DNA of 64,000 bases, taken from contig JAPLYO010000013.1 in assembly GCA_026395555.1 (NCBI GenBank), positions 6,822-70,821 on the forward strand. The letters are read 5' to 3'. Positions 19,010-58,083 of this stretch are shown one piece after another. Origin of the DNA: Candidatus Peregrinibacteria bacterium (lineage in GTDB: Bacteria; Patescibacteriota; Gracilibacteria; UBA1369; UBA12463). The notes below the pieces were generated by a model, which was not told the DNA's origin, did not search any database, and saw only the letters and a list, made by a program, of their open reading frames with translations. Made by a program: the position numbers and the translations under genes. How positions within the stretch are numbered: position 1 is the stretch's first letter; each line of letters opens with the position of its first letter.

Positions 19010-20002
19010 TTATTCCGCATCTTGGTTGATTTCAAGTTTGCTCATTTCGCAGTCAAAATCGCTAATATACGTTTTTCTTTCAGCCGTGCGATAGGCTCCA
19101 TATGCTTCGTCAGCCATCTTCTCCGCCATATCGGCGCTTATTCTTCCGGCATGAGTGAGTATTTCTTTTTCGGTGAGACGAAGAAAACCATCGAGTTTAT
19201 CAATCCATTCTTGCATCTTCATGGGTCGACCATTGGTAGCCTGGAGCTGACCAAAGTCGAGAAAGAGGGAGACGATCAGATTGAGTTGAGACAATTCCGG
19301 TTCATTGAGATAGTTTTTTGCAACGTGGGCGTCGGCGAGTGTAATATAATTGCCCTTAAAATTTGTAAGGCCCATGTACATTTTTTCCGAATCAACGCGT
19401 TCTGCGATAAGTTCTGCCGCGGTACGTCCATGAACTGCATAGTGGAGCTTATTTTGGACGGTCGCGAAAAATTGTTTTGTAAGACGGGAATCCTTATTAT
19501 AATCAATGCTCGTAGCGTAAATATCAGTAATTTTTTGGTAAAAATTCCGTTCACTGGTGCGAATATCACGAATACGCTGCAGTAACTCTTCAAAATACCT
19601 CGCCCTTCCGCCTCCTTGCTTGAGTCGCTCATCATCCATCGTAAAGCCTTTGATAATGTACTCGCGAAGTCGCTGTGTAGCCCAGATACGGAACTGTGTG
19701 CCTCGGATAGAGTGCACACGATACCCTACGGAAATAATGACATCAAGATTGTAATGTTTTACGTCATAATTTTTGCCATCACTTCCAGTACGTCGGAAAT
19801 CCCGACATACTGATTTCTCCTCTAGCTCGTGTTCTTTAAAAATATTAAGAATATGTTCAGTAATAGTAGATCTTCCTTTTTCAAAAAGTTCCGCCATCTG
19901 ATCTTGCGTTAGCCACACGGTCTCTCCCTCCGTCTTCACGTCAATTCGAGTACTGCCATCCTGTGTCTGGTACAATATAATCTCTGATATTTGATCATTC
20001 AT
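19010..20002 (-). CDS. RhuM family virulence/defence-island protein
   Basis: 330 aa. FRRTGSDGKNYDVKHYNLDVIISVGYRVHSIRGTQFRIWATQRLREYIIKGFTMDDERLK matches the RhuM signature. Confidence 0.85.
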   Translation of the reverse strand: MNDQISEIILYQTQDGSTRIDVKTEGETVWLTQDQMAELFEKGRSTITEHILNIFKEHELEEKSVCRDFRRTGSDGKNYDVKHYNLDVIISVGYRVHSIRGTQFRIWATQRLREYIIKGFTMDDERLKQGGGRARYFEELLQRIRDIRTSERNFYQKITDIYATSIDYNKDSRLTKQFFATVQNKLHYAVHGRTAAELIAERVDSEKMYMGLTNFKGNYITLADAHVAKNYLNEPELSQLNLIVSLFLDFGQLQATNGRPMKMQEWIDKLDGFLRLTEKEILTHAGRISADMAEKMADEAYGAYRTAERKTYISDFDCEMSKLEINQDAE

Positions 20003-20197: not shown

Positions 20198-20968
20198 CTA
20201 AAACAACCTCCCCTTCACCTCCGCCCTCCCCAAACTCGAAACATACGCACAGTAATCACACTCCGCCCCCGCCTCCGGCACCTCACCCCCATCCAAACAC
20301 TTCTTCATCTCCATCACCGTCCCCAAAATCCACCCCCCATTCCCTGTATACGGAATGAGCTTCGTATCAAACTCCAATCGACCGTCAAAACTCTCCCTCC
20401 CGCTATCCCCATTGCAATACACAAAATACCCCGTATTCGACACAGCAAACCCATTCATCCGAAATAACCACTGATACACCTCCATCTGCCGCTTATAGCC
20501 GTCCTGCCACTCTGCATCGAGCGACACCTCGCCATCCTTCGCCGTCGCCTTGTAATCCACAATAATCAGCTCGCCACTAGGGCACACCCACACATCATCC
20601 ACTCCTCCCGTGACAACTAAATTTGTCCCCGGCACTTCATATGTCACACCCCTCCTCAGCGAATCCCTCCACTCATCCATCCGCTCATGCTTAAACGGCA
20701 CCGCCTCAATCCCATACTCCTTCATCAATGGATGCGCCGTACCCTCCGCCCTATGAAGATCAAACTCCCTCTTCAACAACGTATCCACCGCCGAATTCAA
20801 CGAAAACGGAAACCCCGGTGGCCTTCCCACCCCAAGCCTCCTATCATAATAAAAACACCTCTTACACTGCAAATACAGATCAATCTTCGACCGACTAATC
20901 CGAAAGGGGACCGTCGAATACGGATCATAAAGGTTGCGTGTGCGTTGGGAGTTGTAGTATTGGGACAT
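20198..20968 (-). CDS. PD-(D/E)XK nuclease, Cas4/AddB-nuclease-like with four cysteines
   Basis: 256 aa. CKRC near the N-terminus, IVDYK...YKRQMEVYQWL (D-x-K plus QxxxY), CDYC near the C-terminus. Confidence 0.75.
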   Translation of the reverse strand: MSQYYNSQRTRNLYDPYSTVPFRISRSKIDLYLQCKRCFYYDRRLGVGRPPGFPFSLNSAVDTLLKREFDLHRAEGTAHPLMKEYGIEAVPFKHERMDEWRDSLRRGVTYEVPGTNLVVTGGVDDVWVCPSGELIIVDYKATAKDGEVSLDAEWQDGYKRQMEVYQWLFRMNGFAVSNTGYFVYCNGDSGRESFDGRLEFDTKLIPYTGNGGWILGTVMEMKKCLDGGEVPEAGAECDYCAYVSSLGRAEVKGRLF

Positions 20969-21143
20969 GGAGAGATTATAGCAGCTTTTTTAAGTGAGTA
21001 GTACGTCTCTTTTTATTGATTCTTCTGCGCTTTTTCGGTATTATATCATTGATTAAAATTCTTATGGCATCTACTAAATCTCCCACATCCTGGCTATCGA
21101 AGTTATTATTACTACCATTATCCACAGTTTTTATATTGACTAT

Positions 21144-21216
21144 TGTCTCATTCGCAAATATGCTGCTGCCACAACAGCGTCTCAACGGAAGCAGCAGCAT
21201 ATTTGCGAATGAGACA
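21144..21216. repeat. 26-bp perfect inverted repeat with 21-nt spacer
   Basis: TGTCTCATTCGCAAATATGCTGCTGC (21144-21169) is the exact reverse complement of 21191-21216. Lies 64 nt beyond the hsdR stop. Confidence 0.9.
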
Positions 21217-21244
21217 CAAAATAGAATTAATGAGTTGATAGTTT

Positions 21245-21270
21245 AATGGCTTGCATAGGCCATTTTTTTT
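21245..21270 (+). terminator. intrinsic terminator, plus-strand orientation
   Basis: AATGGC (21245-21250) / GCCATT (21259-21264) stem with an 8-nt loop, then a T run to 21270. Follows the stop of small ORF 21016-21246 and faces the end of hsdR. Confidence 0.5.
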
Positions 21271-21279
21271 AGATCAAGT

Positions 21280-24078
21280 CTACCACTCAAACATATCGAC
21301 GATATTCTCGATGGCACTCTTAATGCGATCTATCACTCCTTGGCGTTTTCTAAACTGAGGCACTTCAGGTAGTAGATCTACAATTTCTTGTCCGTTGGGC
21401 AGCTTTTGCGTATAGAGATATTCTCCAATCAAATGCTCAAATTTTTCAACGGGGATATTCTCAGCCGTAGCGACATTTTTCAGGCTTTCAGAACGCTCAC
21501 TTGCCCAGAACTTACTAAAAGCCTTTTCGACGTCGTCTGACTTACTAATTTTCGGTAAATTCTCTTCAATGAATTTTTTGATTAAGTCTTTCTTTTTGCG
21601 GAGCTGGGCATCTCTATCAAACAAGCGCAAAATTTCTTCTGTTTTTTTCTTCCGTACAACGTCAGAAGTAACGTTTTTAAGCCCAGCAATGAGCTGAATG
21701 ATATAGTCAAAATCAATGACATCTCGAACGGTAAGCTCAATTTCGAAATCAATCTGATCTAGGATAGATTCAGCGCCACTATCATTATTTTTACGATCTC
21801 CATAAACATCTAAATATTTACTCTGATAATCATAAAACTCTTGCTCAGTTATGCCAAGATCCTTAAATGAAAAATCAGCAAATGTTTCGAGAGATGATTT
21901 TATACGAAGCAAGTCACGGAAAGTTTTTACAAACACCGCCTTTTCTTCTTCGCCTTGTAGGTCATCTACGGAAGCAGCAGTAGGTACTTTTTCTCGTAAT
22001 TCTCCCAGTTTATCCTCAAAATCTTTTTTCTGAACATCATATGGTTTCTTGAATACAATTTCTTTAGCATTTTCATCACCAAAAAGTGCCAGTGCTTTAT
22101 CAGTTGCCTCTTTTAGATTTCTGAATGAAACGATATTTCCATGTGGCTTATCGGAATTCAGGAGACGATTCGTGCGTGAGTAAGCCTGAATTAATCCGTG
22201 ATATCGCAAATTTTTATCAACATACAGCGTATTGAGCCTTGGGCTATCAAAGCCCGTTAAAAACATATTTACCACAAGTACGAGATCAACTTCCTTGTTT
22301 TTTATTCTTTTCTGTAAATCTCGGTAATAATCATAGAAACGATCTGTGGAAAAATTTGTCGAGTATCGTGCATTATAATCTTTTATGCAATCTTCTAAAA
22401 AGTCCCTTGAATGCTGGTTAATTGGCGCCCCCTCACCGGCAAATATATCAGTATCGAGCATATCTGAGCTTTCGTCTTCATTCGCCTGATAGGTGAAAAT
22501 TGTGGCAATAGAAAAATCTTCCGCTTTTTTATCCTTCAATAAAGTATAATACTTCTTTAATACCTCAACGGAAGAAACGGCAAATAGGGCATTAAACTTG
22601 CCTTGTTTTGTCTTTCGTTTCCAGTCAGCCAATACATAATCGACGATTTTATTTAGCCTATCAGGGCTTTCAAGTACTTCTTTGGTATTAATGCCTTCAG
22701 CCAGGGTATCGGCAAAAATGTCTGCATCGAGCGTATCTGGAGCTTTTTTTGTGTATTTTCCGACATACTCGACAGCGAAACCGAGCACATTATTATCATC
22801 AATGGCATGGGTGATAATGTACTTATGTAGGCACTCTCCGAATACATCAACGGTTGTCACTCCTCCCACGTTATTGTCAGCAAAAATTGGTGTTCCAGTA
22901 AACCCGAAAAGTTGTGCCTTCTTGAAGAATCCTTTTATTCTCGAGTGCGTCTGTCCAAATTGACTTCGGTGACATTCGTCAAATATTACCACCACTTTTT
23001 CATTCGCCAAATATTCAAATTGCTTGAGATAGGTCTCTCTTCCAATGGCAATATCAAGCTTTTGAATCGTTGTGACAATAAGCTTTCTATTTCTATCATT
23101 AAGCTGCGTAACAAGACTTTGCGTGTTGTTGGTACCATCTACAGCACCTTCAGAGAAAGAGTTAAACTCTTTTGTTGTCTGAATATCCAAATCTTTTCGA
23201 TCTACCACGAAAAGCACCTTCTTCACTTCGGGCATTCGTGAAAGTATCTGACTCGCCTTATATGAGGTAAGTGTTTTTCCAGAACCCGTAGTATGCCAGA
23301 TATAGCCATTCTTATCCGACGTACGCACGCGCTCCTCAATAGCCCTCACAGCATAGTACTGATACGGTCGAAGTGTCATGGGGATTTGTGTAGCCTCGGC
23401 CAATACGATGTATTCAGCGATCATCTTCGATACCATGCATTTCTCCAAAAATGCATCAGCAAATTCATCCAACTTGGTGATTTTCCTATTCTCAATGTCC
23501 GTCCAATAGAACGTTTGCTCAAATGACTGTTTCGAATTATTCGAGAAGTATTTCGTATTCACCCCATTTGAAATGACAAATATCTGAATATATTCAAATA
23601 ATGTCCCCGTATATGAGTGCTTGTGATAGCGTTGAATTTGATTAAAGGCCTCTTTAAGCTCCATTCCCCGTCGCTTAAGCTCAACCTGCACCAGTGGCAA
23701 GCCATTCACGAGTAAGGTCACGTCATACCGATTCTCATAACGTCCAACCTGAGTAATCTGCTGCGCAACCTGATACTCATTCTTGCACCACTGATCCATA
23801 TTAAAAAACTGCACATAAAACACGCTTCCATCATCACGAGTAAGCGCAAAACGATCCCTCAACGTCTTAGCCTTCTGAAACCGATCACCCTTATCTAAAT
23901 GGTTCGATATACGAGTAAACTCATCATACGAAAAAACAGTCTGATTGAATTTCCCCAGCTGCTCCCTCAAATTACTAATCATCGCCGCCGTATTCTCCAG
24001 CACAACAGACTCAAACCCCAACCTCCCAAGCTGTTCAATCAAAGTATTCTCTAGTTGTTGTTCGGATTGGTGGGTCAT
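21280..24078 (-). CDS. hsdR: type I restriction enzyme, R subunit
   Basis: 932 aa. HsdR N-terminal nuclease region, helicase motifs [11 protein letters not shown] and [10 protein letters not shown]-terminal helical domain. Confidence 0.95.
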
Positions 24079-25094
24079 ATGTTGCCGAAGAGTTCGGTTT
24101 GATTATTTGGAATGCTCGGCACACTCTTCGAGAGTCTTGCTTTATGCGGGATTGTATCCTCATTATAGCTTCTAACTTCTTTAATATAAATACTTCTATT
24201 CTGAAACGCACCATTTTTCAGCTCTCCCGTAATAGTGAAAACTATCTTCATGTTGTCACCGACTGCAAAAGTTCGCTCTTTACTAGAAATTTGCCCTTTG
24301 AAATCAGGGTCTTGCATATAGAATTCGATATCATCCCCGTTGATTAAGATAGGAATACTATTGTATAAAATATCTTCACCATAATATGTACCCCTCCATG
24401 CAATTCCCTTGCCATCCTTTTTCTGTTTAACAACCGGCGATATGAGCTCGACGATACCTTCATTATTCTCTTGAGAGTATTCTTGGTCAAGAATTGGCTC
24501 GATATACTTCGAAAAGTCTATTCTCTGAATAGTTTTTGAAAATACAGATTGATTAGCTGAATCTTTTAGAATTGTTTCGTTATTACTAATCATTCCATCT
24601 CCTCTTAGGGTATTATAGAAACTATTTTTTTTCTTTTTTAAATTTAAATTTTCACACACCTCCTGTATTTTTTCTCCAGGGACACTCTGTATGGAATAGT
24701 CATTTTTAAGGTCTTCCATCGTCATTTGTAGCTGCAGGCATTTTGTAGTTTCATCGATGGTTGCCATTTTCATGCCCTCTAAATGGGCTTCATGTGAATC
24801 TTTATAATTCAAATAACCTAATACTAAACCACCAACAGTGATAGCCAATCCAACCAAGGAGCCTACTCTATTTGTTCTAACAAATTTTACAATATCTCTA
24901 TATGAGCCCGGCTCTGGTGGTAATAAATAAATATCAAAGCGGTCATCTGGAAACAAAATTCTAGCAACCTCATTAATCATTGAGGCGAGATCATCAGAGC
25001 ATTTATTGCGAGTATTGGCGCGTATATAATGTTCAGCAACTCCAAAATGCGTTTCAATTGTAACAAAATCTTCGATTTTTAAGATACTAGACAT
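24075..25094 (-). CDS. orphan membrane-anchored protein embedded between hsdS and hsdR (ORF X)
   Basis: 339 aa. One hydrophobic helix (about residues 77-95, [19 protein letters not shown]). No Walker A or nuclease motif seen. Its TGA overlaps the hsdR ATG (ATGA). Starts 10 nt after the hsdS stop. Confidence 0.7.
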
Positions 25095-25104
25095 CGTTAT
25101 TTGG

Positions 25105-26277
25105 TCATATTAGTAATGACTGAAGGAGGCCCTTTTTCCATTGTTCAGCATGGATAATTTGCTGAGATTTTAATTCTATTAAATTATCAGCTGATTCTAG
25201 AAAATTTGTAATTTTTTGTTGCTCATGAAGTGATGGAAGATTAATTTTAATCTTCTCAATTGTGGCCCTTGAAAGGCTAGGTACGCCTGACGCTTCATTG
25301 TATTTTTGCCAATTTATTTTTTGAAATATATAGCTGGTAAACTTGGGGGTTATGCCTTTAAAGCTATGCGTATAAAATAAAGTATCAACTGTCCAGAAAT
25401 CGCCATTGTAATAAAATGGTTTATCTATAGTTCCCTTCCTTCCTATAAAGACAGTTTCACCGCTATATAAGCTCTTATTAACAGAAAACATATAGCCGCC
25501 AGTACCAAAAACCGGAATATTACCACGCTCTAGATGCTTGTAGTCTTTTCCGCTACCAATTCTCAGAACCTCGCCAAGTATTCTATTATTCCACATTGGG
25601 AAATTATTCCCATCGTCGTCCCTGAAGCGGATTTCTTGAGTGAATATTTTTTGCATTATCCCTCTTTGATAAGATTCAAGAAGCTCCTTATGCGTCTGAA
25701 GATTTTTGATCCATTCGCTCGTAAGCATCAGGCAAGATGCAATCTCTTGCTGTTCTTGCGCTGATGGAATTTTTATTTTAAGATTCTTTAATTGGGATGC
25801 GTATAAATGCACAACAGAATGGCCTTGTGCAATTTTGGCAATATTTTTATTTTGAAAATTAGACAGATAATAGGCAAAAAAATCACCATTTTGACCTTCG
25901 ATTAATCGTAAAACGTTTAAGTCCCCACCCAGTATAATATCGTCTTCTTTTACGCAGCTCGATCTTGCAATGTCTAGTGCCGTTTCGCCTGATGATGGAA
26001 TTAATACATCATTCTTTTTACTTAATAGTGATTCTGTCCTGGATATATTTGTTCTGGATTTTACGTAATTAATGGTCTCGCGATATTCAGTGTATAGCTC
26101 GCCATAGCGGATGCATTTGTTGCTACCATTTTCAGTAATATCATCTTTTGCGAGACCCTTGCCTTTTAAAATGATGCATACATCTCCCAAGGTGCCCTCA
26201 TTCCAATCACCTGAAAATTTTGGAAACCTTAGTTTTGGTATTTTTTTTATACTTGCTTGCTTGACTGTTACTGTCAT
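25105..26277 (-). CDS. hsdS: type I restriction enzyme, S (specificity) subunit
   Basis: 390 aa. Two target-recognition halves, each followed by a conserved helix (IPSAQEQQEIASCL / LPSLHEQQKITNFL). Confidence 0.9.
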   Translation of the reverse strand: MTVTVKQASIKKIPKLRFPKFSGDWNEGTLGDVCIILKGKGLAKDDITENGSNKCIRYGELYTEYRETINYVKSRTNISRTESLLSKKNDVLIPSSGETALDIARSSCVKEDDIILGGDLNVLRLIEGQNGDFFAYYLSNFQNKNIAKIAQGHSVVHLYASQLKNLKIKIPSAQEQQEIASCLMLTSEWIKNLQTHKELLESYQRGIMQKIFTQEIRFRDDDGNNFPMWNNRILGEVLRIGSGKDYKHLERGNIPVFGTGGYMFSVNKSLYSGETVFIGRKGTIDKPFYYNGDFWTVDTLFYTHSFKGITPKFTSYIFQKINWQKYNEASGVPSLSRATIEKIKINLPSLHEQQKITNFLESADNLIELKSQQIIHAEQWKKGLLQSLLI

Positions 26278-26279
26278 GG

Positions 26280-27857
26280 CTAGAATGGTTTATCAATTTT
26301 TAATTCATCGCAAAATTCAGCAATTCTATTTTGTAGATTGAGCTCATTTGAGTGTAATTCTTTTAATATTTTTGCGACTTCTTCGATATCTATAATCTTT
26401 TCTTCCTCAAAAGTGTCCACGTATCGAGGAATATTGAGATTGTAGTCATTTTCCTTTATCTCACTGATGTTTGCCCTATGAGAGTATTTTTCTATTTCTT
26501 TTCGAGTTTTGTAGGTATCAAAGATTTTTTTAATATTTTCATCAGTGAGTTTGTTTTGATTGCCAACTTTCTCAAATTCTTTCGATGCATCTATAAGCAA
26601 AATATTTTCATCTTCACGGCGACATTTTTTGAAGACAAGGACTGTGGCGGGGATAGAGGTCCCATAAAAGAGGTTTGCTGGTAGACCAATAACGGTATCT
26701 AGATAATTTAACTTTTCGATAATATATTTTCGGATATGACCTTCGGCGCCAGATCGGAAGAGGGCTCCGTGAGGTAAGACGATAGCCATCGTGCCATTTT
26801 CGGCAAGGTGATGGAGCATGTGGGTGACAAAGGCATAATCGGCGGCGCTCTTTGGGGCAAGTCGGCCGTATTGAGAGAAGCGGTCGTCGTGAGCAAGTGT
26901 CGGGTCGGTGTCTCCTTTCCATTGAGCAGAAAATGGGGGATTAGCGACAATTGCTTCGGCCTTGAGGTCTGGGTGCATATCTTCCTTGAGTGTGTCGCCT
27001 TGGCGGATTGAGAAGCGGTCGAAGTGAACTCCGTGCAAGATCATGTTCATTCGAGCAAGGTTGTAGGTTGTTGGATTGAGCTCTTGTCCGTAATAATTAA
27101 CTACATCGGTAAACTCCCCGAGGCGGAGTAAGAGTGAGCCAGAACCACATGTTGCGTCATAGGCGGATTTGATACGTTTCTTGTCCATGGAGACGATCTG
27201 CGCAAGCAAACGTGATACTTGGGCGGGAGTATAAAATTCACCACCTTTTTTGCCTGCACCAGCCGCAAATTCACCGATCAAGTATTCATAAGCATCACCA
27301 AGAAGGTCGCTTTTAGCGTCTTCAAGCTTAAAATCGATGCCGCTGAGTAAAGCAAGTACCTCAACAACGACTTCATTTTTGTCATTTTCCCGTGAGCCAA
27401 GCTTAGAAGAGGTGAGATCCATATCGTCGAATAATCCTTTGAAATCATCTTCACTGGCAGTTCCGGCGGAAGTTTTTTCGATATCGTTAAGGATATTTTT
27501 GAGGTCTTCTAGGATGAAGGTCTTTTGATTCTTAATTTCGCCCTTCCCTTTTTTGACAAGATAGGAAAAGAGCTCAGTTGGCCTCAGGAAAAAGCCGAGT
27601 TCGCCGACACATGCCGTTTTGATGTGATCTAGATCCTCTTTGCCTTCTTTGGAGTCTTCATTAATCTCTGCGAAGGTAAATTTTTCACCAACGATAACTT
27701 TTTCATTTACATAGCGCTCAAGCTTTTCAGATAGATATTTATAGAAGATAAAGCCAAGAATATAATTTTTATACTCATCGGCATTCATTTTACCCCGAAG
27801 TACATTCGCCACACCCCATAGCTGGCGTTCAAGGATTCTTTTCTGATCTTCTGACAT
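26280..27857 (-). CDS. hsdM: type I restriction enzyme, M (N6-adenine methyltransferase) subunit
   Basis: 525 aa. HsdM N-terminal domain, AdoMet motif DATCGSGS and catalytic NPPF (IVANPPFS). Confidence 0.95.
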   Translation of the reverse strand: MSEDQKRILERQLWGVANVLRGKMNADEYKNYILGFIFYKYLSEKLERYVNEKVIVGEKFTFAEINEDSKEGKEDLDHIKTACVGELGFFLRPTELFSYLVKKGKGEIKNQKTFILEDLKNILNDIEKTSAGTASEDDFKGLFDDMDLTSSKLGSRENDKNEVVVEVLALLSGIDFKLEDAKSDLLGDAYEYLIGEFAAGAGKKGGEFYTPAQVSRLLAQIVSMDKKRIKSAYDATCGSGSLLLRLGEFTDVVNYYGQELNPTTYNLARMNMILHGVHFDRFSIRQGDTLKEDMHPDLKAEAIVANPPFSAQWKGDTDPTLAHDDRFSQYGRLAPKSAADYAFVTHMLHHLAENGTMAIVLPHGALFRSGAEGHIRKYIIEKLNYLDTVIGLPANLFYGTSIPATVLVFKKCRREDENILLIDASKEFEKVGNQNKLTDENIKKIFDTYKTRKEIEKYSHRANISEIKENDYNLNIPRYVDTFEEEKIIDIEEVAKILKELHSNELNLQNRIAEFCDELKIDKPF

Positions 27858-27917: not shown

Positions 27918-28208
27918 TTAGGTGAGCGGACACTCTGATAATGAGAGTAGATTATTTGGCTCATCCCCATCGGAGGTAGTCTTGATGTAGGCATTGCCGA
28001 ATCTGCTAGTGGCTACAATTACTTCAGCTCGTCTGCCATATACATCAATAGTGTAGAATTGATATGTTCCCGCCCTGATGTATCGAATCGCTTCCTGCTG
28101 AGTTATTTTCCAACGAGTATTATTAGAAAATCCGCCAACATGAGTAATGCGTTCATAAGGGTTATAGCGAATTTCTTTATTGATGCAGGTAATTTGATGC
28201 TGTGACAT
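27918..28208 (-). CDS. DUF3892 domain protein
   Basis: 96 aa. ITHVGG...WKITQQEAIRYIRAGTYQFYT...YIKTTSDGDEPNNLLSLSEC matches the DUF3892 pattern. Sits 60 nt upstream of hsdM on the same strand. Confidence 0.7.
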   Translation of the reverse strand: MSQHQITCINKEIRYNPYERITHVGGFSNNTRWKITQQEAIRYIRAGTYQFYTIDVYGRRAEVIVATSRFGNAYIKTTSDGDEPNNLLSLSECPLT

Positions 28209-28381: not shown

Positions 28382-29074
28382 ATGAAAAACCTCATCATCA
28401 AGCTCAGAAAGGCGGCAAAACTATCACAGGAGGAGCTCGCGCAGAAGCTCGGGATGTCGCGACCTACGCTGATGGCGGTGGAGAACGGAACCCGGGATAT
28501 TACGCTTGGTGAGCTGAAACTATTATCGAAGATTTTTGATATACCCGTGGAGGTGATTTTGGATGAGGATATGGGGGTTTTGGAGAAGGTGGAGTTGCAG
28601 AATTTTAGTGAAAAGGCATTTCAGAAGTTTCATAATCTGATACTGCAGTGTATCAAGTATGGGGCGGGAGCTGATGGGAAGATCACCAAAACAAAACTGG
28701 CGAAACTGGTGTATCTTTGCGATTTTGCGAGCTATTACAAGTCGCTTCATCCTATCTCGGGGCTGGAGTATCACAAGCTCGCACAGGGTCCGGTGGCGAT
28801 TGAGTTTTTTGATATTTTGGAGTCCAATGAGTCGATCTCAGTAGAGAGGAAGAATAATGCATTGATGGTTTCCCTGAACGAGCAGCCGGATGATTCGGTA
28901 TTGAGCAAAGAAGAGCAAAAGTTGGTTCGCACCATCTGTGAAAAATGGAAAAAGGCCGATACCAAGCAGATTGTCGATTTCACCCATAAGCAGCTCCCGT
29001 GGGCTATGTGCAAGGATCGAGAGGTGATCCCGTATTCCCTTATTAACAACGAAGAGCCGGACAATGTTTATTAA
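28382..29074 (+). CDS. XRE-family HTH fused to a Panacea (DUF4065/SocA-like) antitoxin domain
   Basis: 230 aa. LRKAAKLSQEELAQKLGMSRPTLMAVENG (HTH_XRE), then TKTKLAKLVYLCDFASYYKSLHPISGLEYHKLAQGPV (DUF4065-like). Confidence 0.75.
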   Translation: MKNLIIKLRKAAKLSQEELAQKLGMSRPTLMAVENGTRDITLGELKLLSKIFDIPVEVILDEDMGVLEKVELQNFSEKAFQKFHNLILQCIKYGAGADGKITKTKLAKLVYLCDFASYYKSLHPISGLEYHKLAQGPVAIEFFDILESNESISVERKNNALMVSLNEQPDDSVLSKEEQKLVRTICEKWKKADTKQIVDFTHKQLPWAMCKDREVIPYSLINNEEPDNVY

Positions 29075-29477
29075 AGACCTCACATTTCAGGTGGAGTTTT
29101 CTTCGCACGCGGAGAAGTATTTCTGCAAGGAGTTCCTGAAAAAGTATAAACCGAAGCAGTGGGTCGAGACGAGAAAGACAATTGTGGATACGCTAGAGCG
29201 TTCCTTCGCCGCTCAGCAAACCACGTTGATTGATAATCTAAAATTCTCTCAGGATGATGGAATCGGCATTTTTAAGCTTGATTTCCGGGTAGCCGGGACG
29301 AAGGAGTCACCGAAATTATCAGGTAATAGGGCGATTTTTTCGTTATCAAATAAGACTGGTCGTATTGAGGTTTTGCTGGTGTACGGGAAAATTCACTGCC
29401 CGAAAAAGCAGTCTGAGACACAGTGGATATTGGAGGAGGTGAAGGGTGCGTTTCCGGAATATAAGAAGTACTGTTAG
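29064..29477 (+). CDS. putative toxin partner of the Panacea antitoxin (weak RelE/ParE-like pattern)
   Basis: 137 aa. Overlaps the antitoxin gene by 11 nt. GIFKLDFRVAGT...SGNRAIFSL...RIEVLLVYGK resembles the RelE/ParE beta-sheet core. Assignment by eye only. Confidence 0.5.
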   Translation: MFIKDLTFQVEFSSHAEKYFCKEFLKKYKPKQWVETRKTIVDTLERSFAAQQTTLIDNLKFSQDDGIGIFKLDFRVAGTKESPKLSGNRAIFSLSNKTGRIEVLLVYGKIHCPKKQSETQWILEEVKGAFPEYKKYC

Positions 29478-32400
29478 CTGCTCTTCAATAGTCCCTCCTC
29501 AAACTCTCTCACCCCCTCCAAGCTCCTCTCGTACCCGCTCACATCCGGGAAATCCAGTGCCATAATTCTGCTATACACAGCCACAATCAGCTTCTTCATT
29601 CTCTCAGTTTCTTCGTCGGTAATATCCAAAGAAAGGATGTTGATCTTGCCGTCGACGGGTTCGAGGAATTCGAGGAATCCCTGGCGCACAGTGAATTTGC
29701 TTCTCAAATCGCGGGCGTTTTCCACGAGGATTTTATAGAAGATGAGTTGGTTTTTGTACTTCCAGGCTTTTATTTTTTCGTAGTCGGAGCCGTGGGTCCA
29801 ATCCTTGAGTGGGTGGCCGGTTTTGTAGTCGTAGACGAGGATTTCCCGCTTCTCTTCATCGTAGCTCCATTTATCGATTTTTCCGGTAAGCTCGGCATTT
29901 TCGATCACGACACTCTGACCTCTGAAGTCGTATTCCGATTGGTCTTGAGGGTTGAAATAGGCCTTTCTCGCCTCATAATACGCGCTCAGGTGATCTCGGC
30001 CTTTCTCGAGGCACTCTGCAAAGTCTTTCTTACTCAGTCGTTGCTGCGAGAGATAGCGCTCGAACTCTTTCAGGAGGAAATCGAGACTGGGTAGAATATT
30101 CGTAAGCTTGAACTCGCCCGCAAGTGTGCTTAGCGCATGATGCATAGCGCTCCCGTACGTACCCGAAAGGATAGGCCGCTGCGGGAAGCGCAGGAGGTTC
30201 TGCTCCAGAAACGTCTGAGGGCCGCCCTTGGTGACATCGAGGAAGTTATTCAGGTGGGTGACGCTGAGTTGGTAATCTTTCAGAAGTCCTTTCAAGACCT
30301 CATCCTCCTCAATATTTTTCACCTCGTGCTTTTCTATTTTTAATTGCAGCAAGAGGAGCTTCTCAAGTCCCTTCGCCTGGGCAAAATCATGTTGCATACC
30401 CTCGACGGTGGCCGGATCAATATTTTCTTTCTTCCTTTTCTCCACCATGCCATCCTCCAGGAAGCGCAGACGGATCTGCTCGTTGCCGTTTTCCTTGTAC
30501 TGATGTCGGGTGAGGTAGAGGTTTCTCTTGGCTCGGGTAAGCGCAACATAGAAGAGTCGCAACTTATCATCATCGGTCTCACCCTCAGCGGCGAGGGGAA
30601 TGTTCGACGGGAGAGTGAGCTTGTCTGCGGAGTGGCTACGAGTCCATTCGGCGTCATGACAGTGGAGCAGGAAGACATGCTCGAACTCAAGACCCTTAGC
30701 CCCATGGGCCGTGAGCAGATTGACCGCCTTCTCGTCACTATTGAATGCACTGGTATAGTACAGCCGGAGCTGATGTTTCTCGTGCAGCGTAATGAGCTCC
30801 ACGACGTCTGAGACCGTCTTCGCACCGCTTCCCTTGTATGAACGCACCTTCTCGATGAGCGCCTGTAGCGCCTGTAAAAGATTGAGGTAGGCGAGCCTGT
30901 CTTCTTCGAACGCCTTCGGGTTGAAGTAGTACGCCTTGTATGGGCTTTGGAAAGCCGTTTCCGAGTCGTCGACACCGGTAATCATATCAATAATTTCTTC
31001 CGCAGTTTTTTCCTTCGCATCGACTCCGAGGGTGATGAGAAAGGTAGCGATCTGCTTGAGACGCTGATCTTCACTTTCAAGCATAACTTTCAGCCAACTT
31101 TTTCTCTCCTCATACGATTTTGCAGAAAGTTTCCAAACCGTCACACGGTCAATATTCCAGAAGGGAGCACTCAGAATTTCCGGAAGATACTCATCGGCTT
31201 GCCGCTCATTTGTCGCTACCGTATCGACAAATTTGAGAATCGTAATGAGCTCCTTGATATGTTTTTGCTCGAGAAGATTTTTCTTCCTCTCATACGAAAC
31301 CGGAATCCCAAAGTAGTCGAGGACTTTGGCGGCGCGCTCAAGCGTCTCGTGTTTACGCGCAATCACCGCTATAGCGGAAGGTGAAGTTTTTTTCTCAGTA
31401 AGTTTCTTCTGAATAATTTCTGACACCCACACCATCTCCTCCAGGCTCGTTGGAAATTCTTTTTCTATAATCTCTCCTGCTACGAGGCTCGTATTCGCTG
31501 AATAAAGTTCTTTTTTGATCAAATCAGGAAGTTGGTTTTCCAATCGTTCTTCGCCTTTTAAAATAACTTGTCTGACAAAGTCGAGAATTGGCCGCGTAGA
31601 GCGGTAATTTTGCTGTAATACAACCATAGTTGGATCACGATACTTCTTATGGAACTCCATCAGATTCGCCATATTCGCCCCCTGAAACTTATAAATCGCC
31701 TGATCGTCATCGCCCACGGCCAAGACATTCGGTCGCCCCTCATGCACATCATTATCGAGCAATAAATCCAAAAGTCGCATCTGTACGCCATTCGTATCCT
31801 GAAACTCATCGACGAGAACATAGAGGTATCGCTCCTGAAGATTATACTTTAGCTCGGGATGATGCATAAGAGCCTCAACCGTATCGAGTAGCATATCGTC
31901 GTAATCAAAAAAGCCTTCCTTGTGGAGCTGCTGCTGATACTGCGCATATACATCGCACAACTCGAACTGTTTTTTGATCCTTTCTATGTCCTTGAATGTA
32001 TTTATTTTTTCATCATTTTTTTTTGTATGCTCATTTTTCCACGCCGTAATGGGCTTGGTATTTGGCTTATCTTCGGCCATAGCCTCCTCATAGGCATTTT
32101 CAAGTGAGGTGACGAGCGTGTCTTTGATGCTCAAATAGGGGAGCGCCGTAGTTCTCGGCTGGAAGGTAACTCCCTTAAGATTTTCAATCAGTTCAGGAAT
32201 TAGCCCAATCGTTTTTGCCACGATAGTTTTCTGAAAAACCGGCTCCAGAAAACTATTCGCCTGCTCCAAGAAGCTCTTATTCTCTTCCAATATTTCCTTA
32301 AAATTCTCCGGACTCAATCCTCCCTTCTTGAGCTCACCGATCTTGCTAATAATGTCTTTCAAATATGTGTAACCCTGATCGGGATGGTAGGAACGCAGCG

Positions 32401-32815
32401 AAGAGTCGTATTTCAAATGCTCCAATATTTTTTCCAAAATCGCATACCGAGTCAGATCATCAGCAGGACTATATCTACCACCCTGATAAAAATACTCAGG
32501 ATTTTTGTTAATAATCTCCGTCCCAAATCCATGGAACGTATGAATCGCCACCTTGTATGCATCTAATCCAATCAAACCGGCAAGTCGCTTCCTCATGGTC
32601 GTCGCCCCCGCATCGGTATAGGTCAAACAGAGAATAGAAGAGGGAAGTGTGTCCGTCAGTCTCAGAATATTTGCCACTCGCAGGCTCAAAAGCTCCGTCT
32701 TTCCCGATCCCGGCCCCGCAATCACCATCACCGGCCCCTCAATCGTATCCACGGCCTTCTTCTGCTCTCCATTGAGGCCCTTATATCGTTGCTGAAAATA
32801 TTCTTCCAAATCCAT
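29474..32815 (-). CDS. UvrD/PcrA-type SF1 helicase fused to a C-terminal RecB-family PD-(D/E)XK nuclease
   Basis: Met at 32815 (MDLEEYF...; the listed start 32935 adds a hydrophobic junk extension). AGPGSGKTELL Walker A, VDEFQDTN, C-terminal VYDYKTG...YKNQLIFY nuclease motifs. Confidence 0.85.
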   Translation of the reverse strand: MDLEEYFQQRYKGLNGEQKKAVDTIEGPVMVIAGPGSGKTELLSLRVANILRLTDTLPSSILCLTYTDAGATTMRKRLAGLIGLDAYKVAIHTFHGFGTEIINKNPEYFYQGGRYSPADDLTRYAILEKILEHLKYDSSLRSYHPDQGYTYLKDIISKIGELKKGGLSPENFKEILEENKSFLEQANSFLEPVFQKTIVAKTIGLIPELIENLKGVTFQPRTTALPYLSIKDTLVTSLENAYEEAMAEDKPNTKPITAWKNEHTKKNDEKINTFKDIERIKKQFELCDVYAQYQQQLHKEGFFDYDDMLLDTVEALMHHPELKYNLQERYLYVLVDEFQDTNGVQMRLLDLLLDNDVHEGRPNVLAVGDDDQAIYKFQGANMANLMEFHKKYRDPTMVVLQQNYRSTRPILDFVRQVILKGEERLENQLPDLIKKELYSANTSLVAGEIIEKEFPTSLEEMVWVSEIIQKKLTEKKTSPSAIAVIARKHETLERAAKVLDYFGIPVSYERKKNLLEQKHIKELITILKFVDTVATNERQADEYLPEILSAPFWNIDRVTVWKLSAKSYEERKSWLKVMLESEDQRLKQIATFLITLGVDAKEKTAEEIIDMITGVDDSETAFQSPYKAYYFNPKAFEEDRLAYLNLLQALQALIEKVRSYKGSGAKTVSDVVELITLHEKHQLRLYYTSAFNSDEKAVNLLTAHGAKGLEFEHVFLLHCHDAEWTRSHSADKLTLPSNIPLAAEGETDDDKLRLFYVALTRAKRNLYLTRHQYKENGNEQIRLRFLEDGMVEKRKKENIDPATVEGMQHDFAQAKGLEKLLLLQLKIEKHEVKNIEEDEVLKGLLKDYQLSVTHLNNFLDVTKGGPQTFLEQNLLRFPQRPILSGTYGSAMHHALSTLAGEFKLTNILPSLDFLLKEFERYLSQQRLSKKDFAECLEKGRDHLSAYYEARKAYFNPQDQSEYDFRGQSVVIENAELTGKIDKWSYDEEKREILVYDYKTGHPLKDWTHGSDYEKIKAWKYKNQLIFYKILVENARDLRSKFTVRQGFLEFLEPVDGKINILSLDITDEETERMKKLIVAVYSRIMALDFPDVSGYERSLEGVREFEEGLLKSS

Positions 32816-32917
32816 AGTGCCCCGAGTATACCACAAAGCCCACAACACTGGATTTGCATAAATTTGAATATATGATAAAATATCGATCCGAAAGAAATTA
32901 CTCAGAATAATGACCCA

Positions 32918-33370
32918 ATGAACAGTCCAACGCACCTCCCGGAGCCAGTTCGAAGTTCTCAGGATCCCGATATCCGAGAACCTCTTTGCAGGGAGATTGC
33001 GTATCGATTTGAAAATACGTTTATGAGGAGGTTATTCCTCATTCTTTTGGACCACCTCCAAGATGGAATGCACCGACAGACGCTTCGGGACGAATATGAG
33101 ATGAGGTACGGTGAGTATATTGACATCGAGCAGCTCAACTCGCTCAATGGATTTTTTATGAAGGAACGAAAAACATTCCAGGGCGAGCCGGAGACATTTC
33201 AGCTAGAGATGTATAAGAGTTGGTTTCGTATCGTTCCACCGGAATACAGTGCGCGTGCACGTATCGAGGCGAATAGAAAACGCCAACGAGAAGAGGTAAG
33301 TCTCAGGGTGAGATCGCAATTAGACGCTTCTCTCAAACGCTCCTGGAAGATGACGGTCAGAACGGCGTAA
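32918..33370 (+). CDS. hypothetical protein
   Basis: 150 aa (or 115 aa from MRRLF). Basic C-terminus. Divergent from the helicase gene and 83 nt upstream of the MazF-like gene. Confidence 0.45.
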   Translation: MNSPTHLPEPVRSSQDPDIREPLCREIAYRFENTFMRRLFLILLDHLQDGMHRQTLRDEYEMRYGEYIDIEQLNSLNGFFMKERKTFQGEPETFQLEMYKSWFRIVPPEYSARARIEANRKRQREEVSLRVRSQLDASLKRSWKMTVRTA

Positions 33371-41167: not shown

Positions 41168-43171
41168 CTAGCTCGACAATCCCACCGTATACGTACTGGC
41201 TCCCGTCTTCATGACGAGAAGCAGGCGATAGATAATCTCGGCCACCTCGGCACGGGTGATTTCCTCGTTTGGTTTAAACTCGGTTCCGTTGTTTGGGAGA
41301 AGGTTCTTCTGCTTGGCGAACTGCGCAAAGACAGCGTACCAATCGGTAGTCGCAACGTCGCTATAAGGAGCGGAGCTAACAACCGGATCGATAGATACCG
41401 GAGCGGACAAGAGGAGTATCTTCAAAAATTCACTTCGAGTGACGTCTTGGTTTGGCTTGAAGAAGCCGCCAATATAGCCGTTTGCAATACCGTTCTGCTG
41501 CGCAGTAGCAATGTAAGGAATATACCAAGCCTTTGGATCGATATCGGCATAAGAAAGCGTACCGTTCGTATTGAGAAGTTGTCGATTGGCCGTCTTGAGG
41601 GCGACCTTCAGTACCTCTACTCGAGAGATGACCTGCTGAGGCTTAAACGTTCCATCTTCATATCCTCCGAACACGGACTGCTGTTTAACGTACTTAATAG
41701 CGTCATAGTAGGAAGAGCTTCCTCCGACGTCGGCAAAGATTTTTGGTTTATTCGTAGTGACGACAGCGGCTGCTTTTTCTTCAACAACCGGAGCGACAAC
41801 AACAGGTTCCGGAGCCACAATGGTGAACTCCTGAGACTTCGATGCTACGTCATTGTAGAGAATAGTGAGCTGACCCTTGCCAGGTTTTGGCGAGAGGATT
41901 TGAATGACAAACTGCCCACCGGTAAGATCATCTTCTGTGATAGTCGCCTTGGAGAGGATACCAACATCACCCGTCAAAAGAACAAGCGCTGAGCCATTGA
42001 ATTGATTAAGGTTTGAACCTGAAGCATCCTTCGCGGATACGGTGAGTTTCACCTCCTCGGAGATTTGATACGATGTCTTCCCGCTAACAGTGAACACCGG
42101 AGTGACGGTAATAGGTGCTGGAGTTACAACAGGGTCAGATGTTGGCACGGCCGTAGGTACTACGACAGGCGCAACAACCGGAGTAACCGGAGTAACGACA
42201 GGCGTAGGAGGTGGAGTGACTACCTGTGTAGAAGGAATGGATCCTGCAGCAAGAATAGGCGCACTCGTAAGGTTTTGCTGGACGAATGTCATGGGATTGA
42301 TCGTATTGAGGATCGCCTTATCCTTTCCAAGTCCGGCATCAAGAGCGCCGACGAAGTCTAATCCGGCAGCAGTCTGCTCCTGATAAGTGAACGGCCAGTA
42401 TGGGTGCCAAGGAGACTCGGCCTTATCAATCTGGAAGTGAACGTGGGGTGTTGTGGCGAAACCTGTCTCACCGGAAAGAGCGATATTTTGACCACGCAAG
42501 ACGACATCACCCTCGCTCACGAGGATAGAACCAAGATGGCTATAGGATGAGTAGTAGGTTGTGAGTACTGAAGGATTGTCTACGGATGGAACGTTGTTGT
42601 GCTGAATGACGATGTGTTTCCCGAAACCACTCGTGAGCGAAGCGACCTTGATAACAACTCCATTCGCAATGGATCGAACCGGAGTATTCATAGGAACCTT
42701 GATGTCTACTGCAAGGTGACTTCCATCAAACTCCTTTCCATTTAAACGGTAACTTCCCATGTAGGGAACGGAGTAGGTAATCTTCTGATTGCGAATCGCA
42801 TCATCAGCAGGATTGCCCCACTTCAAATTCTCAACCGGCTGCGCAAGATTGGCAGCGTTGTATACAGGCATCGGATTGAGTTTGCTCGAAGGAATCTGTT
42901 CGTAGGAATATTTATACTCGGTGCTCTTGAGGGCAACCCAGTTTGGCGCTTTCTCTACAGGATAAACGGTACCATCAAAAGCAGGATGCTGCTTGACGGG
43001 AAGGATACTAGCGAAAAAGTTTGAACTCTCGCCACCGACCAGCGCGAATGATCCAAGAGTCAAAACGAGAAGTCCGATCCACGCTGTCGCATGTCGGCGT
43101 TTCTTGCTTACCTCGAGTTGATGGATAGGACTATCGATGAACTGATCTTCGTTTCCTGATTCGTAGGACAT
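41168..43171 (-). CDS. M23 family metallopeptidase with three C-terminal SLH domains
   Basis: 667 aa. HLAVDI...HIVIQH...SYSHL...GETGFATTPHVHFQI (LytM/M23), a P/T/V-rich linker, then three SLH-like repeats (FADVGGSSSYYDAIKYV..., YADIDPKAWYIPYI..., YSDVATTDWYAVFAQF...). Confidence 0.85.
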   Translation of the reverse strand: MSYESGNEDQFIDSPIHQLEVSKKRRHATAWIGLLVLTLGSFALVGGESSNFFASILPVKQHPAFDGTVYPVEKAPNWVALKSTEYKYSYEQIPSSKLNPMPVYNAANLAQPVENLKWGNPADDAIRNQKITYSVPYMGSYRLNGKEFDGSHLAVDIKVPMNTPVRSIANGVVIKVASLTSGFGKHIVIQHNNVPSVDNPSVLTTYYSSYSHLGSILVSEGDVVLRGQNIALSGETGFATTPHVHFQIDKAESPWHPYWPFTYQEQTAAGLDFVGALDAGLGKDKAILNTINPMTFVQQNLTSAPILAAGSIPSTQVVTPPPTPVVTPVTPVVAPVVVPTAVPTSDPVVTPAPITVTPVFTVSGKTSYQISEEVKLTVSAKDASGSNLNQFNGSALVLLTGDVGILSKATITEDDLTGGQFVIQILSPKPGKGQLTILYNDVASKSQEFTIVAPEPVVVAPVVEEKAAAVVTTNKPKIFADVGGSSSYYDAIKYVKQQSVFGGYEDGTFKPQQVISRVEVLKVALKTANRQLLNTNGTLSYADIDPKAWYIPYIATAQQNGIANGYIGGFFKPNQDVTRSEFLKILLLSAPVSIDPVVSSAPYSDVATTDWYAVFAQFAKQKNLLPNNGTEFKPNEEITRAEVAEIIYRLLLVMKTGASTYTVGLSS

Positions 43172-46060: not shown

Positions 46061-46120
46061 CAAAGCTGAGCAAAGCTGAAATGGAAGAGCTAAAGCTAAA
46101 AGCGAGAGTTTAAAGCTAAA
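46061..46120. repeat. phased AAAGCT(G/A)A repeats
   Basis: cAAAGCTGAg 46061, cAAAGCTGAa 46071, tAAAGCTAAa 46091, tAAAGCTAAa 46111 (spacing 10, 20, 20 nt). The last copy overlaps the final codons of the 46116-48662 gene. Confidence 0.7.
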
Positions 46121-57300: not shown

Positions 57301-57941
57301 TCGGACTCCTTCACATAATGTGAATCTCCGGTTGCTACCAATCCCACTCCAAATTTTTTCGATAATGCAATCATGCCATCATTTACGACAGTTTGCTGCT
57401 CCAGCTCAGGGTTATCCTGAATTTCGAGGTAATATCTATCCGGACCCATCATGTCTCGGTACATCACCACAAGCTCCTCGGCCTTGCCCATATCACCGGA
57501 CAGAATCGCCCGACTCACCTCACCATTGAGACATCCACTCAAAACAATCAAATCCTCTTTATAAACACCGAGCAACGCATGATCAATACGAGGCTTATAA
57601 TAAAAACCCTCCAAATTCGCCTTCGTCACGAGCTGCATCAAGTTCTGATATCCCTTGAAACTCGTCGCCAATACCGTCAAATGAAATGGCTTATTATCAA
57701 TACCGGCCGACTTATCAAATCTAGTTCTCTGCGCTACGTACATTTCGCATCCAATAATAGGCTTAATTCCAGCCTTCTTCGCGGCTTTATAGAAATCAAT
57801 CGCACCATACATAACTCCATGATCCGTCACGGCCAAGGCCGGACATCCCAGCTCTTTGGCCCGCTGAACCATCACGTCCGGTGACCTGAGTCCATCCAGA
57901 AGGCTGTAGTAGGAGTGGGAGTGGAGGTGAACGAAGGACAT
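54315..57941 (-). CDS. dnaE: DNA polymerase III alpha subunit
   Basis: MSFVHLHSHSYYSLLDG PHP start at 57941. The listed start 58031 runs into tRNA-Leu. Polymerase core, OB fold and a C-terminal extension. Confidence 0.95.
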   Translation of the reverse strand: MSFVHLHSHSYYSLLDGLRSPDVMVQRAKELGCPALAVTDHGVMYGAIDFYKAAKKAGIKPIIGCEMYVAQRTRFDKSAGIDNKPFHLTVLATSFKGYQNLMQLVTKANLEGFYYKPRIDHALLGVYKEDLIVLSGCLNGEVSRAILSGDMGKAEELVVMYRDMMGPDRYYLEIQDNPELEQQTVVNDGMIALSKKFGVGLVATGDSHYVKESEHHSHDILLSIQTGTNIYDENRMKFSGNFALKTPEQMKEAFKHVPEAIENTLKIADMCNIEIPLHQNLLPNFDTPNNVPPDEYLRQLCYEGLQVRYDGAPSEKVITQLEYELGIVHQMGFDAYFLIVWDFIRAARERGIVVGPGRGSAAGSLLSYALFITQLDPLEHGLIFERFLNPERISMPDIDVDFADDRRGEVLEYVIDKYGRENVAQIITFGTMASRAAVRDVGRALGYPYSEVDAVSKKIPPPVQGKHVPLHESIEKDPELKELYKKDERARVLLDDAMELEGTVRHAGTHACAVVISSKPLVQYTPLQFGAGGEQKDVVTQYSMKPIEEIGLLKMDFLGLKNLTVMEKALGIIKKSRGIEIDLNRLPKNDPKAFELLQKGETTGVFQLESGGMRRYLKELVPTNFNDIVAMVSLYRPGPMDWIPSYIKGKHHPESVHYLDKSFETILNETYGVAVYQEQILQIAQQYAGFSLGEADLLRKAVGKKIMELLVEQKEKFIKGAVKKGHTKKNAEEVFEKVIEPFAGYGFNKAHGACYGMIAYQTAYLKGNYPDELMTALLMCDQGDLDRMAIEIEECESMGIQVLPPSINESESNFTLVGPGKIRFGLSAVKGVGEAPVLEILRIRREGGPFTSIQNFAERVPSNCINKKLFMALAYCGALEEFGERMTLIENFDRIVQHSKSHQGGQAQGQTGLFDDFGSDDGIPEFSLEKAPPATRTDCLRWEKEYLGLYVSSHPLQGLRSYFGKKVLLAEKITKKYIGKSVQFAGLVTNPKKIFTKSGTYMMQFLLEDPTGRINAVVFPKSYAMFAEKLKQDHIVIVTGRLDLRRSEYNLTVDAVSSMSLESMIAKAKELGLYKPEEKVRRQLIVISPEDAAKDKPRVVDEGEMPPEEHGGSEEVSHPSSSTAISGISGPSVSISGDTLVVSLLKDTPSSIMAAVKQILNKHVGVHPTEIHLRDGQEVRKIRLPVGVSFEGQVKEELEALFQQPKIG

Positions 57942-57999
57942 TTTGAAGCTAAACAAAAAACAGGAATGAATACGGGAACGAAATCCGACACTACGTGTC

Positions 58000-58083
58000 T
58001 GGTGCCTGGGAGAGGACTCGAACCTCCACATCTTGCGATACCAGCTCCTAAGGCTGGCGTGTCTGCCATTTCACCACCCAGGC
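58000..58083 (-). tRNA. tRNA-Leu (anticodon UAG), long variable arm, CCA encoded
   Basis: Reverse complement folds with acceptor GCCTGGG/CCCAGGC, anticodon stem CCAGC/GCTGG with loop CTTAGGA, variable arm TATCGCAAGATGT, T loop TTCGAGT. Confidence 0.9.

Follow-up and report, generated by a model that had tools for sequence, protein, structure and literature searches.

A gene lodged between hsdS and hsdR in a type I restriction–modification (R-M) operon of a Candidatus Peregrinibacteria bacterium (assembly GCA_026395555.1, contig JAPLYO010000013.1, positions 6,822–70,821; this stretch of 64,000 nucleotides is referred to here as the window) encodes a member of PDC-S42, a family of phage defence candidates. 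The gene, designated X, occupies positions 24075–25094 of the window on the minus strand. Its relatives recur at the hsdS–hsdR junction of Patescibacteria, carry a hydrophobic segment at a constant position and end in a conserved Q-x-x-L-F motif of the type that binds the bacterial beta sliding clamp. The explanation favoured here, although it falls a little short of an even chance, is that X is cargo of the PDC-S42 family that functions autonomously and is expressed together with hsdR; its product would be tethered to the membrane, dock on the sliding clamp and interfere with replicating foreign DNA. The broader proposition that PDC-S42 proteins are membrane-tethered immune proteins latching onto the host beta clamp and thereby detecting phage DNA, or blocking it, as it replicates at the membrane is put forward only tentatively and is rather doubtful. 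We know of no anti-phage system for which a membrane-tethered, clamp-latching mode has been described.

The family assignment is provided by the PADLOC model PDLC05016, which X matches at E=3e-32 (110 bits), with residues 17–323 aligned to positions 17–301 of a 320-position profile. All 72 relatives sampled out of 72 match PDC-S42 models as well (PDLC05015–05017, best E-value 2e-119). On profile evidence, X is a divergent member, from the Patescibacteria branch, of PDC-S42, a single-gene family of uncharacterised proteins. An annotation made earlier from the sequence alone, the first-pass annotation, had described X as an orphan, a view overturned by the number of its relatives. A word-indexed search yielded 34 close homologues, 40–73% identical to X and all 324–356 residues long, the few named ones being listed as "hypothetical protein" of Ca. 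Parcubacteria or Paceibacterota. A profile search of 1.84 billion representatives returned 300 clusters (50% identity) at E≤1e-3, of which 120 remained at ≤1e-10; almost without exception these are stand-alone proteins of 300–360 residues aligned end to end. The PDC-S42 model is centred on Parabacteroides-type proteins (1e-100 to 4e-112), to which X is only 21–25% identical. X shares with the family its length class, its stand-alone architecture and the rationale of embedding in R-M loci; its Patescibacteria branch differs in having a stronger hydrophobic helix and in being mostly embedded in R-M operons, whereas the Parabacteroides branch is not. In four loci (L006, L049, L051 and L053; handles of this kind denote loci of the survey described below) code 25, in which UGA is read as Gly, is needed for intact genes, so the family extends to recoded lineages of the Gracilibacteria/Absconditabacteria type.

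Other collections were silent. Pfam at lenient thresholds on X, 30 close and 72 diverse relatives gave noise only, NCBIfam on X gave sub-threshold noise, and a sequence-profile search of the PDB gave no match. The profile and structure searches recommended by the first-pass annotation were rewarded with the PDC-S42 match, but with neither a Pfam family nor, by Foldseek, a PDB fold at E≤1e-3. The PDC collection comprises 145 phage defence candidates picked by their embedding in BREX, DISARM or type I R-M loci, an approach termed "guilt-by-embedding", and PrrC is presented there as an example of an embedded system that is found almost exclusively inside type I R-M (Payne, Hughes, Fineran & Jackson, bioRxiv 10.1101/2024.01.29.577857). 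The reasoning that had led the first-pass annotation to propose a new restriction-linked defence candidate is the reasoning of this published screen, and the family of X was already on its list.

The six-frame list of open reading frames (ORFs) of the window places four genes on the minus strand in the order hsdM, hsdS, X and hsdR. The methyltransferase gene hsdM (26280–27857) encodes 525 residues with Pfam N6_Mtase (5.8e-109) and HsdM_N domains and matches NCBIfam TIGR00497 (6e-140). The specificity gene hsdS (25105–26277) encodes 390 residues, with two stretches of Pfam Methylase_S (6.9e-37) and a PADLOC Specificity_I match (4e-87). X encodes 339 residues, and hsdR (21280–24078) specifies an EcoR124-like restriction/translocase subunit of 932 residues with Pfam HSDR_N, SWI2_SNF2, T1R_D3-like and EcoR124_C domains (TIGR00348, 8.8e-145; PADLOC REase_I, 3.9e-300). 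The signature domains of all three subunits of an EcoR124-like type I system are present. Gaps of 2 and 10 nucleotides separate hsdM from hsdS and hsdS from X, and X overlaps hsdR by 4 nucleotides, the sequence ATGA at 24075–24078 containing both the TGA stop of X and the ATG start of hsdR. When the locus was called independently in a second assembly, the identical four genes resulted; the layout and the three Hsd identities had been read correctly in the first-pass annotation. In all likelihood X shares a transcript with the operon, and its translation is coupled to that of hsdR; a scan of the operon for promoters and terminators was uninformative. A mis-called extension of hsdS or hsdR is ruled out, as X represents an independent conserved family that is present outside R-M loci as well. 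The GC content of the R-M block (window 21000–27000) is 0.36–0.42 versus approximately 0.46 in the flanks, which is consistent with horizontal acquisition of the operon; the block is part of a chromosomal island bounded by RmuC and ribosomal protein S1. The IF-2 of the host, a Patescibacteria (CPR) bacterium, shares 60–64% identity with its nearest named counterparts, which belong to Ca. Gracilibacteria, Peregrinibacteria and the Patescibacteria group.

The surroundings of X homologues were surveyed by combining a one-genome-per-species scan, a metagenome scan and exact-protein look-ups, with neighbours assigned by tblastn with the Hsd proteins of three loci and by precomputed Pfam hits. The close-homologue set (at least 37% identity to X, usable flanks) consists of 22 distinct loci, some of which are short or mutually related. 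In 14 of these, the window included, the X homologue is flanked by hsdS and hsdR, all three on one strand (the window, L005, L006, L007, L043/L123, L044, L045, L046, L049, L050, L051, L053, L125/126 and L134/135). Two very different R-M lineages are represented: in lineage A, HsdM and HsdR are 72–84% identical to those of the window and X is 46–65% identical, and in lineage B the corresponding figures are 31–35% for HsdM, 25–30% for HsdR and 39–49% for X. The homologue adjoins hsdR in about half of the embedded loci (4-nucleotide overlap or a gap of no more than 12 nucleotides), the ATGA overlap being found beyond the window in only one other independent locus, L125. Genes intervene between X and hsdR in L006, L043, L049/L053, L051, L134 and probably L044.

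Type I R-M is missing from the other eight loci of the set. One of them, L124, represents a defence island in which a type III R-M system, an OLD-family ATPase and an nSTAND protein are encoded. In L127 a serine recombinase, NOV_C and Schlafen genes lie near the X homologue, in L129 a DUF4011 helicase adjoins it, and in L003 and L054 it is followed by a PD-(D/E)XK-like gene of approximately 497 residues. Neutral-looking surroundings characterize L001, L002 and L004/L131, the homologue in L131 being positioned between TsaE, Bax1-I and PolA. Among distant members, that of L137 is found beside YaaC and another hsdMS pair, and that of L139 (3367–7056) resides in an element bounded by an integrase, where it immediately follows umuD-like, umuC-like (IMS) and SRAP genes; these neighbours serve in replication and repair, in functions that make use of the clamp. 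In the Parabacteroides branch the gene follows, at fixed spacing, a gene for a DUF2148 (ferredoxin-domain) protein in approximately 20 of the approximately 35 Bacteroidales (mostly Parabacteroides) species genomes scanned, a closely spaced pair in L012 (7444–8960) serving as an example. All-against-all BLAST of the immediate neighbours in 20 loci disclosed no recurrent partner gene, save one of approximately 497 residues in two related loci. The family was not found on the IMG/VR viral contigs scanned, and tblastn with X and a distant relative produced nothing against phage records and a single match, to one Parabacteroides record, against a plasmid collection.

In Patescibacteria, X shows a strong preference, expressed repeatedly, for the hsdS–hsdR junction; it is an autonomous module and not an obligate partner of HsdR. 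The scoring of homologue contexts proposed in the first-pass annotation thus gave a divided answer, with 14 of 22 close loci at the junction but the remaining eight and the Parabacteroides branch elsewhere. The tight wiring to HsdR that had been claimed is not a property of the family: those eight loci and essentially all Parabacteroides relatives are devoid of type I R-M, and intervening genes are present in six or seven embedded loci. What survives is the link to restriction and defence by context, with 14 embedded loci and several others in defence or mobile islands, although not its novelty, since PDC-S42 is already listed. On genomic context, a defence association of the Patescibacteria branch is supported.

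The position of X invites comparison with the E. coli prr locus, where the order is hsdM-hsdS-prrC-hsdR and PrrC is an anticodon nuclease. X does occupy the same slot, as had been noted in the first-pass annotation, and, like PrrC, may be conceived as a second line of defence placed inside such an operon. It differs in its hydrophobic helix and its tail of the clamp type, and in belonging to a family that is often without R-M. Membership of PrrC is ruled out on domain content: X has no Walker A motif (G....GK[ST], by regular expression) and no AAA or ABC Pfam match, PrrC is not matched in PADLOC at E≤0.01, and no anticodon nuclease domain is detected by Pfam, NCBIfam, PADLOC or PDB fold search. 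The absence of Walker A, nuclease, Fic or kinase motifs reported in the first-pass annotation was borne out by regular expression and by Pfam and NCBIfam, and by the lack of a PADLOC match to PrrC, Fic or kinase models. A guard that works in the manner of PrrC, as considered in the first-pass annotation, is an alternative reading: X would be silenced by contact with HsdMSR and fire as an abortive-infection effector, for instance by damaging the membrane, once a phage anti-restriction protein disables the enzyme. We consider this unlikely. The prrC slot, in which PrrC itself is almost exclusively embedded, the 14 hsdS-X-hsdR loci in two very different R-M lineages, the ATGA overlap in the window and in L125, and a GxxxG-like pattern (GGLVLG) read from the sequence of the hydrophobic helix all speak for a guard. 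An autonomous cargo gene fits better because type I R-M is missing from eight of 22 close loci and from the Parabacteroides branch, other cargo often sits between X and hsdR (L006, L043, L051 and L134) and the overlap is rarely repeated. Moreover, X lacks the ABC ATPase and anticodon nuclease domains of PrrC, and a guard leaves the conserved clamp-type tail unexplained.

The same survey bears on whether X serves defence at all. It might be a membrane-associated, replication-linked factor, for example one that tethers the clamp or DNA, which hitch-hikes in variable regions including R-M operons. Many Parabacteroides species keep the DUF2148-X pair in stable chromosomal surroundings, the L131 homologue lies between TsaE, Bax1-I and PolA, that of L139 accompanies umuDC and SRAP in an integrase element, and the family is not found on IMG/VR contigs or phage records, with one Parabacteroides record as the sole match in the plasmid collection. 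Such a housekeeping or non-defence role is nonetheless improbable: the Patescibacteria branch is strongly and repeatedly embedded in R-M loci and defence islands, X evolves faster in R-M lineage A (46–65% identity) than HsdM and HsdR (72–84%), and occurrence outside Parabacteroides is patchy.

The C-terminus offers an indication of how an autonomous PDC-S42 protein could act. The last ten residues of X include QTELF (residues 332–336; 24087–24101, minus strand), a C-terminal Q-x-x-L-F of the beta-clamp-binding type, which follows a flexible basic linker of low model confidence. In 147 full-length members, the set to which all family-wide figures refer, the corresponding columns are conserved as Q in 82%, L in 76% and F in 84% of sequences, despite a variable linker before them; linkers are rich in K and R throughout the family. 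A strict Q..LF is present within the last 20 residues of 69 of the 147 members versus 0.14% of control windows in the same proteins, and shuffled tails contain it in a mean of 1.2 sequences and a maximum of 5. The commonest tail residues are Q-L-S-L-F-D. Parabacteroides proteins of the family end in QLTLDLF, which fits QLxLxL, another form of the clamp motif. Within the window, X alone among 70 ORFs of at least 100 residues displays Q..LF near the C-terminus, and DnaE, the alpha subunit of Pol III (54315–58031, minus strand), carries QTGLF at residue 940, where an internal clamp motif is expected.

In bacteria, clamp-binding proteins display QL[S/D]LF or the looser form QxxLF, in which residues 1, 4 and 5 are critical, and PolC has this motif at its C-terminus (PMC12309361); insertion sequence (IS) transposases use the same motif (PMC4549789). 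PDC-S42 proteins resemble established clamp partners, such as PolC, Pol IV, Hda and IS transposases, in the conservation of the Q, L and F positions and in the placement of the motif at the end of a flexible tail. They differ in that X has a membrane-type helix, atypical of clamp partners, and in that the topology predicted for its close branch conflicts with a cytoplasmic tail. The SocB toxin is a clamp-binding-motif protein too. A literature search found no paper that ties a clamp-binding motif to a defence system. The tail could also be recruited to restriction itself, bringing the type I enzyme to newly replicated and transiently unmodified host DNA, or restraining it there, as a device of restriction alleviation or self-protection. 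Such an accessory is compatible with the clamp-type motif taken together with a location immediately before hsdR that is conserved in two R-M lineages, but X is frequent without any R-M, nothing points to contact with Hsd subunits and a membrane helix would be unexpected for this role, which is accordingly a distinctly remote prospect.

The hydrophobic helix is the second feature on which the favoured explanation depends. Hydropathy was calculated as a simple Kyte-Doolittle mean over 19 residues. Residues 77–95 of X, an uncharged stretch, reach 1.96, in agreement with the helix placed there by the first-pass annotation. With only a handful of exceptions, the 147 members have their top hydrophobic peak at residues ~60–95, and in 111 of the 147 it attains at least 1.6; the position of the segment is kept and its sequence is not. 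Conservation of position only is typical of a lipid-facing helix, which supports membrane anchoring for most of the family, and X is most likely tied to the membrane by this single helix.

Two AlphaFold2 models of X were compared. The model built on a 72-sequence alignment has a mean predicted local distance difference test score (pLDDT) of 89.2 and a predicted template modelling score (pTM) of 0.83; an earlier model on 30 sequences had reached 78.2 and 0.62. Residues 1–75 (24870–25094, minus strand, as for all segments of X) form a small alpha/beta N-domain, modelled at pLDDT >90 with a strand at 10–19, a helix at 26–47 and strands at 53–58 and 66–73. The most conserved polar residues of the family sit here (E14, H16, H22, R29, N30, C32 and G63), and one may guess, but no more than guess, at a metal or active site. 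Residues 77–97 (24804–24866) constitute the hydrophobic, Gly-rich segment of 21 residues, a candidate membrane anchor modelled as a helix at 81–95. Residues 98–318 (24141–24803) comprise a helical segment (101–165) and a beta-rich domain (169–310), and residues 319–331 (24102–24140) are the basic, low-confidence linker, with pLDDT <50 at 319–332 in the first model and ~66 in the second. The C-terminal domain of about 240 residues described as beta-rich in the first-pass annotation is therefore beta-rich only over some 140 residues, preceded by about 65 residues of helices and followed by the disordered basic linker and the short conserved tail. Its conserved positions are mostly aromatic or hydrophobic: F194, E216, S219-P220-V221, W233-x-G235-x-Y237 and F258-x-M260-x-D262-xx-F265-K266, the last being an FYMQDxDFK block.

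Foldseek searches of the PDB with both models gave nothing at E≤1e-3, and weak partial matches (OB-fold/SSB, ferredoxin-like and M16-like) were not relied on; as modelled, the helical and beta-rich domain appears to be without a solved relative. In BFVD the model matches four uncharacterised phage proteins (E 1.4e-8 to 1.6e-4) with low TM-scores (0.24–0.37). One of these is labelled DUF6575, a Pfam domain that is matched by sequence in no PDC-S42 member searched and that is otherwise mentioned just once, among the domains of a validated E. coli PD system. The phage family phrog_3243 matches the C-terminal domain of relatives of X (P0135 at 3.3e-11, Parabacteroides at 1e-5), and X itself falls below significance. 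All of these phage proteins are functionally uncharacterised.

Beyond the observed layout, family membership, embedding and conservation of the hydrophobic segment and tail, we infer for X a defence function, membrane insertion with a given topology, clamp binding and an outcome for the cell, which may be combined as follows. X would be cargo that sits at the hsdS–hsdR junction of a type I R-M operon of the EcoR124 kind, itself acquired horizontally, and would act alone, not as an R-M subunit. Once its QxxLF tail had docked on the host beta sliding clamp (DnaN), X would target, at the membrane, replicating DNA loaded with the clamp, providing a second anti-phage line behind restriction. Phage replication might thereby be blocked or the infection aborted.

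Several observations weigh against this scheme. The 145 PDC candidates are described by their own authors as untested (bioRxiv 10.1101/2024.01.29.577857), and no mention of PDC-S42 by name was found in the literature. No nuclease, ATPase or pore-forming domain is recognisable in X by Pfam, NCBIfam or PDB profile and fold searches. The DUF2148-X pair of Parabacteroides has no R-M nearby and its stable chromosomal position looks core-like, not island-like. The hydrophobic segment is marginal in Parabacteroides and Saccharibacteria members. The tail could dock back on X itself as an alternative to the clamp. In the close branch the lysine and arginine residues flanking the helix number 4.4 upstream versus 1.9 downstream (31 of 34 sequences), which predicts an N-in/C-out topology that would leave the QxxLF tail outside the cell and out of the reach of DnaN. 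Finally, a pTM of 0.83 hints that the N- and C-domains pack together in the same compartment, at variance with a simple membrane-spanning helix between them.

The last two points pull in opposite directions, and the cytosolic placing of the N-terminal head in the first-pass annotation was an assumption. Among distant members the charge bias is weak (2.8 upstream versus 2.5 downstream), and the Bacteroidales relatives, with no signal peptide and a marginal hydrophobic segment, probably have a cytoplasmic C-domain. Taking together the weak family-wide bias, the Bacteroidales proteins and the pTM, we lean toward a cytoplasmic C-domain; if this is so, the helix of X may be a monotopic or conditional anchor. 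The opposite topology would suit a type II membrane protein (N-in, C-out) whose outward C-domain blocks phage adsorption or DNA entry, as prophage Sie proteins do, and it draws on the strong positive-inside signal of the 31 close-branch sequences, on the invariant C119 and C147 after the helix with mostly even Cys counts in that branch, and on the phage proteins as remote structural relatives, but such surface exclusion is very unlikely, given that the wider family neither keeps the Cys pair nor has more than a weak charge bias, that the Bacteroidales relatives point to a cytoplasmic C-domain and that a QxxLF tail has no known extracellular role.

Should the defence reading of PDC-S42 be true, Patescibacteria, whose genomes are tiny and whose other means of defence are few, would keep a compact one-gene system within their type I R-M operons. 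A first concrete handle on the mechanism of an otherwise blank candidate family is supplied by the conserved tail of clamp type, and a defence that is tethered to the membrane and directed at the clamp would bring the replisome clamp into the range of targets that bacterial immunity watches or attacks. Should both the defence and the clamp readings fail, the family would serve as a warning that guilt-by-embedding can catch non-defence cargo, as the core-like Parabacteroides pair suggests.

X is one of several genes inserted in these operons. Cargo is concentrated at the hsdM-hsdS and hsdS-hsdR junctions of L005, L007, L123, L134 and L051, type I R-M loci from other Patescibacteria, and X-bearing R-M operons also harbour, in varied combinations, AAA_21+RloB, Fic (SoFic), Schlafen/AlbA_2, Bro-N, Hypoth_Ymh and a Panacea-type pair. 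Such cargo (AAA_21+RloB, Fic/SoFic, Schlafen/AlbA_2, Ymh/HEPN and Panacea toxin–antitoxin genes) uses the same inter-subunit junctions as X but is unrelated to it in sequence and domains, X being the one that recurs beside hsdR. Small unrelated genes with Rx4H strings (RNIIAH, RCNLFH and RNSLVH) or Hypoth_Ymh lie beside X homologues in L001 (9022–9693), L129 (6041–6511), L125 (6088–6951) and L134 (8051–8806), and hint, by eye only, at HEPN-type neighbours.

In the window, the defence island extends downstream of hsdR, with a Cas4-like PD-(D/E)XK nuclease gene (20198–20968, minus strand) directly adjacent and a RhuM-family gene (19010–20002, minus strand; PADLOC PDC-S05, 1.6e-140) beyond. Immediately upstream of hsdM lies a DUF3892 gene (27918–28208, minus strand), which is found in the second assembly too. 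Further upstream, a gene with HTH_3 and SocA/Panacea antitoxin domains (28382–29074, plus strand) overlaps by 11 nucleotides an ORF of 137 residues (29064–29477, plus strand) that has no Pfam or PADLOC match; the two look like a Panacea-type toxin–antitoxin pair with an unclassified toxin, and a Panacea-like gene similar to that of the window is located between X and hsdR in L051. The border of the island is marked by a gene for a UvrD-type helicase fused to a C-terminal PD-(D/E)XK nuclease (29474–32935, minus strand; 1153 residues, with an uncertain GTG start). Elsewhere the window encodes an SLH-domain M23 peptidase (41168–43171, minus strand) and a TrwB/VirD4-like coupling-protein homologue (46116–48662, minus strand).

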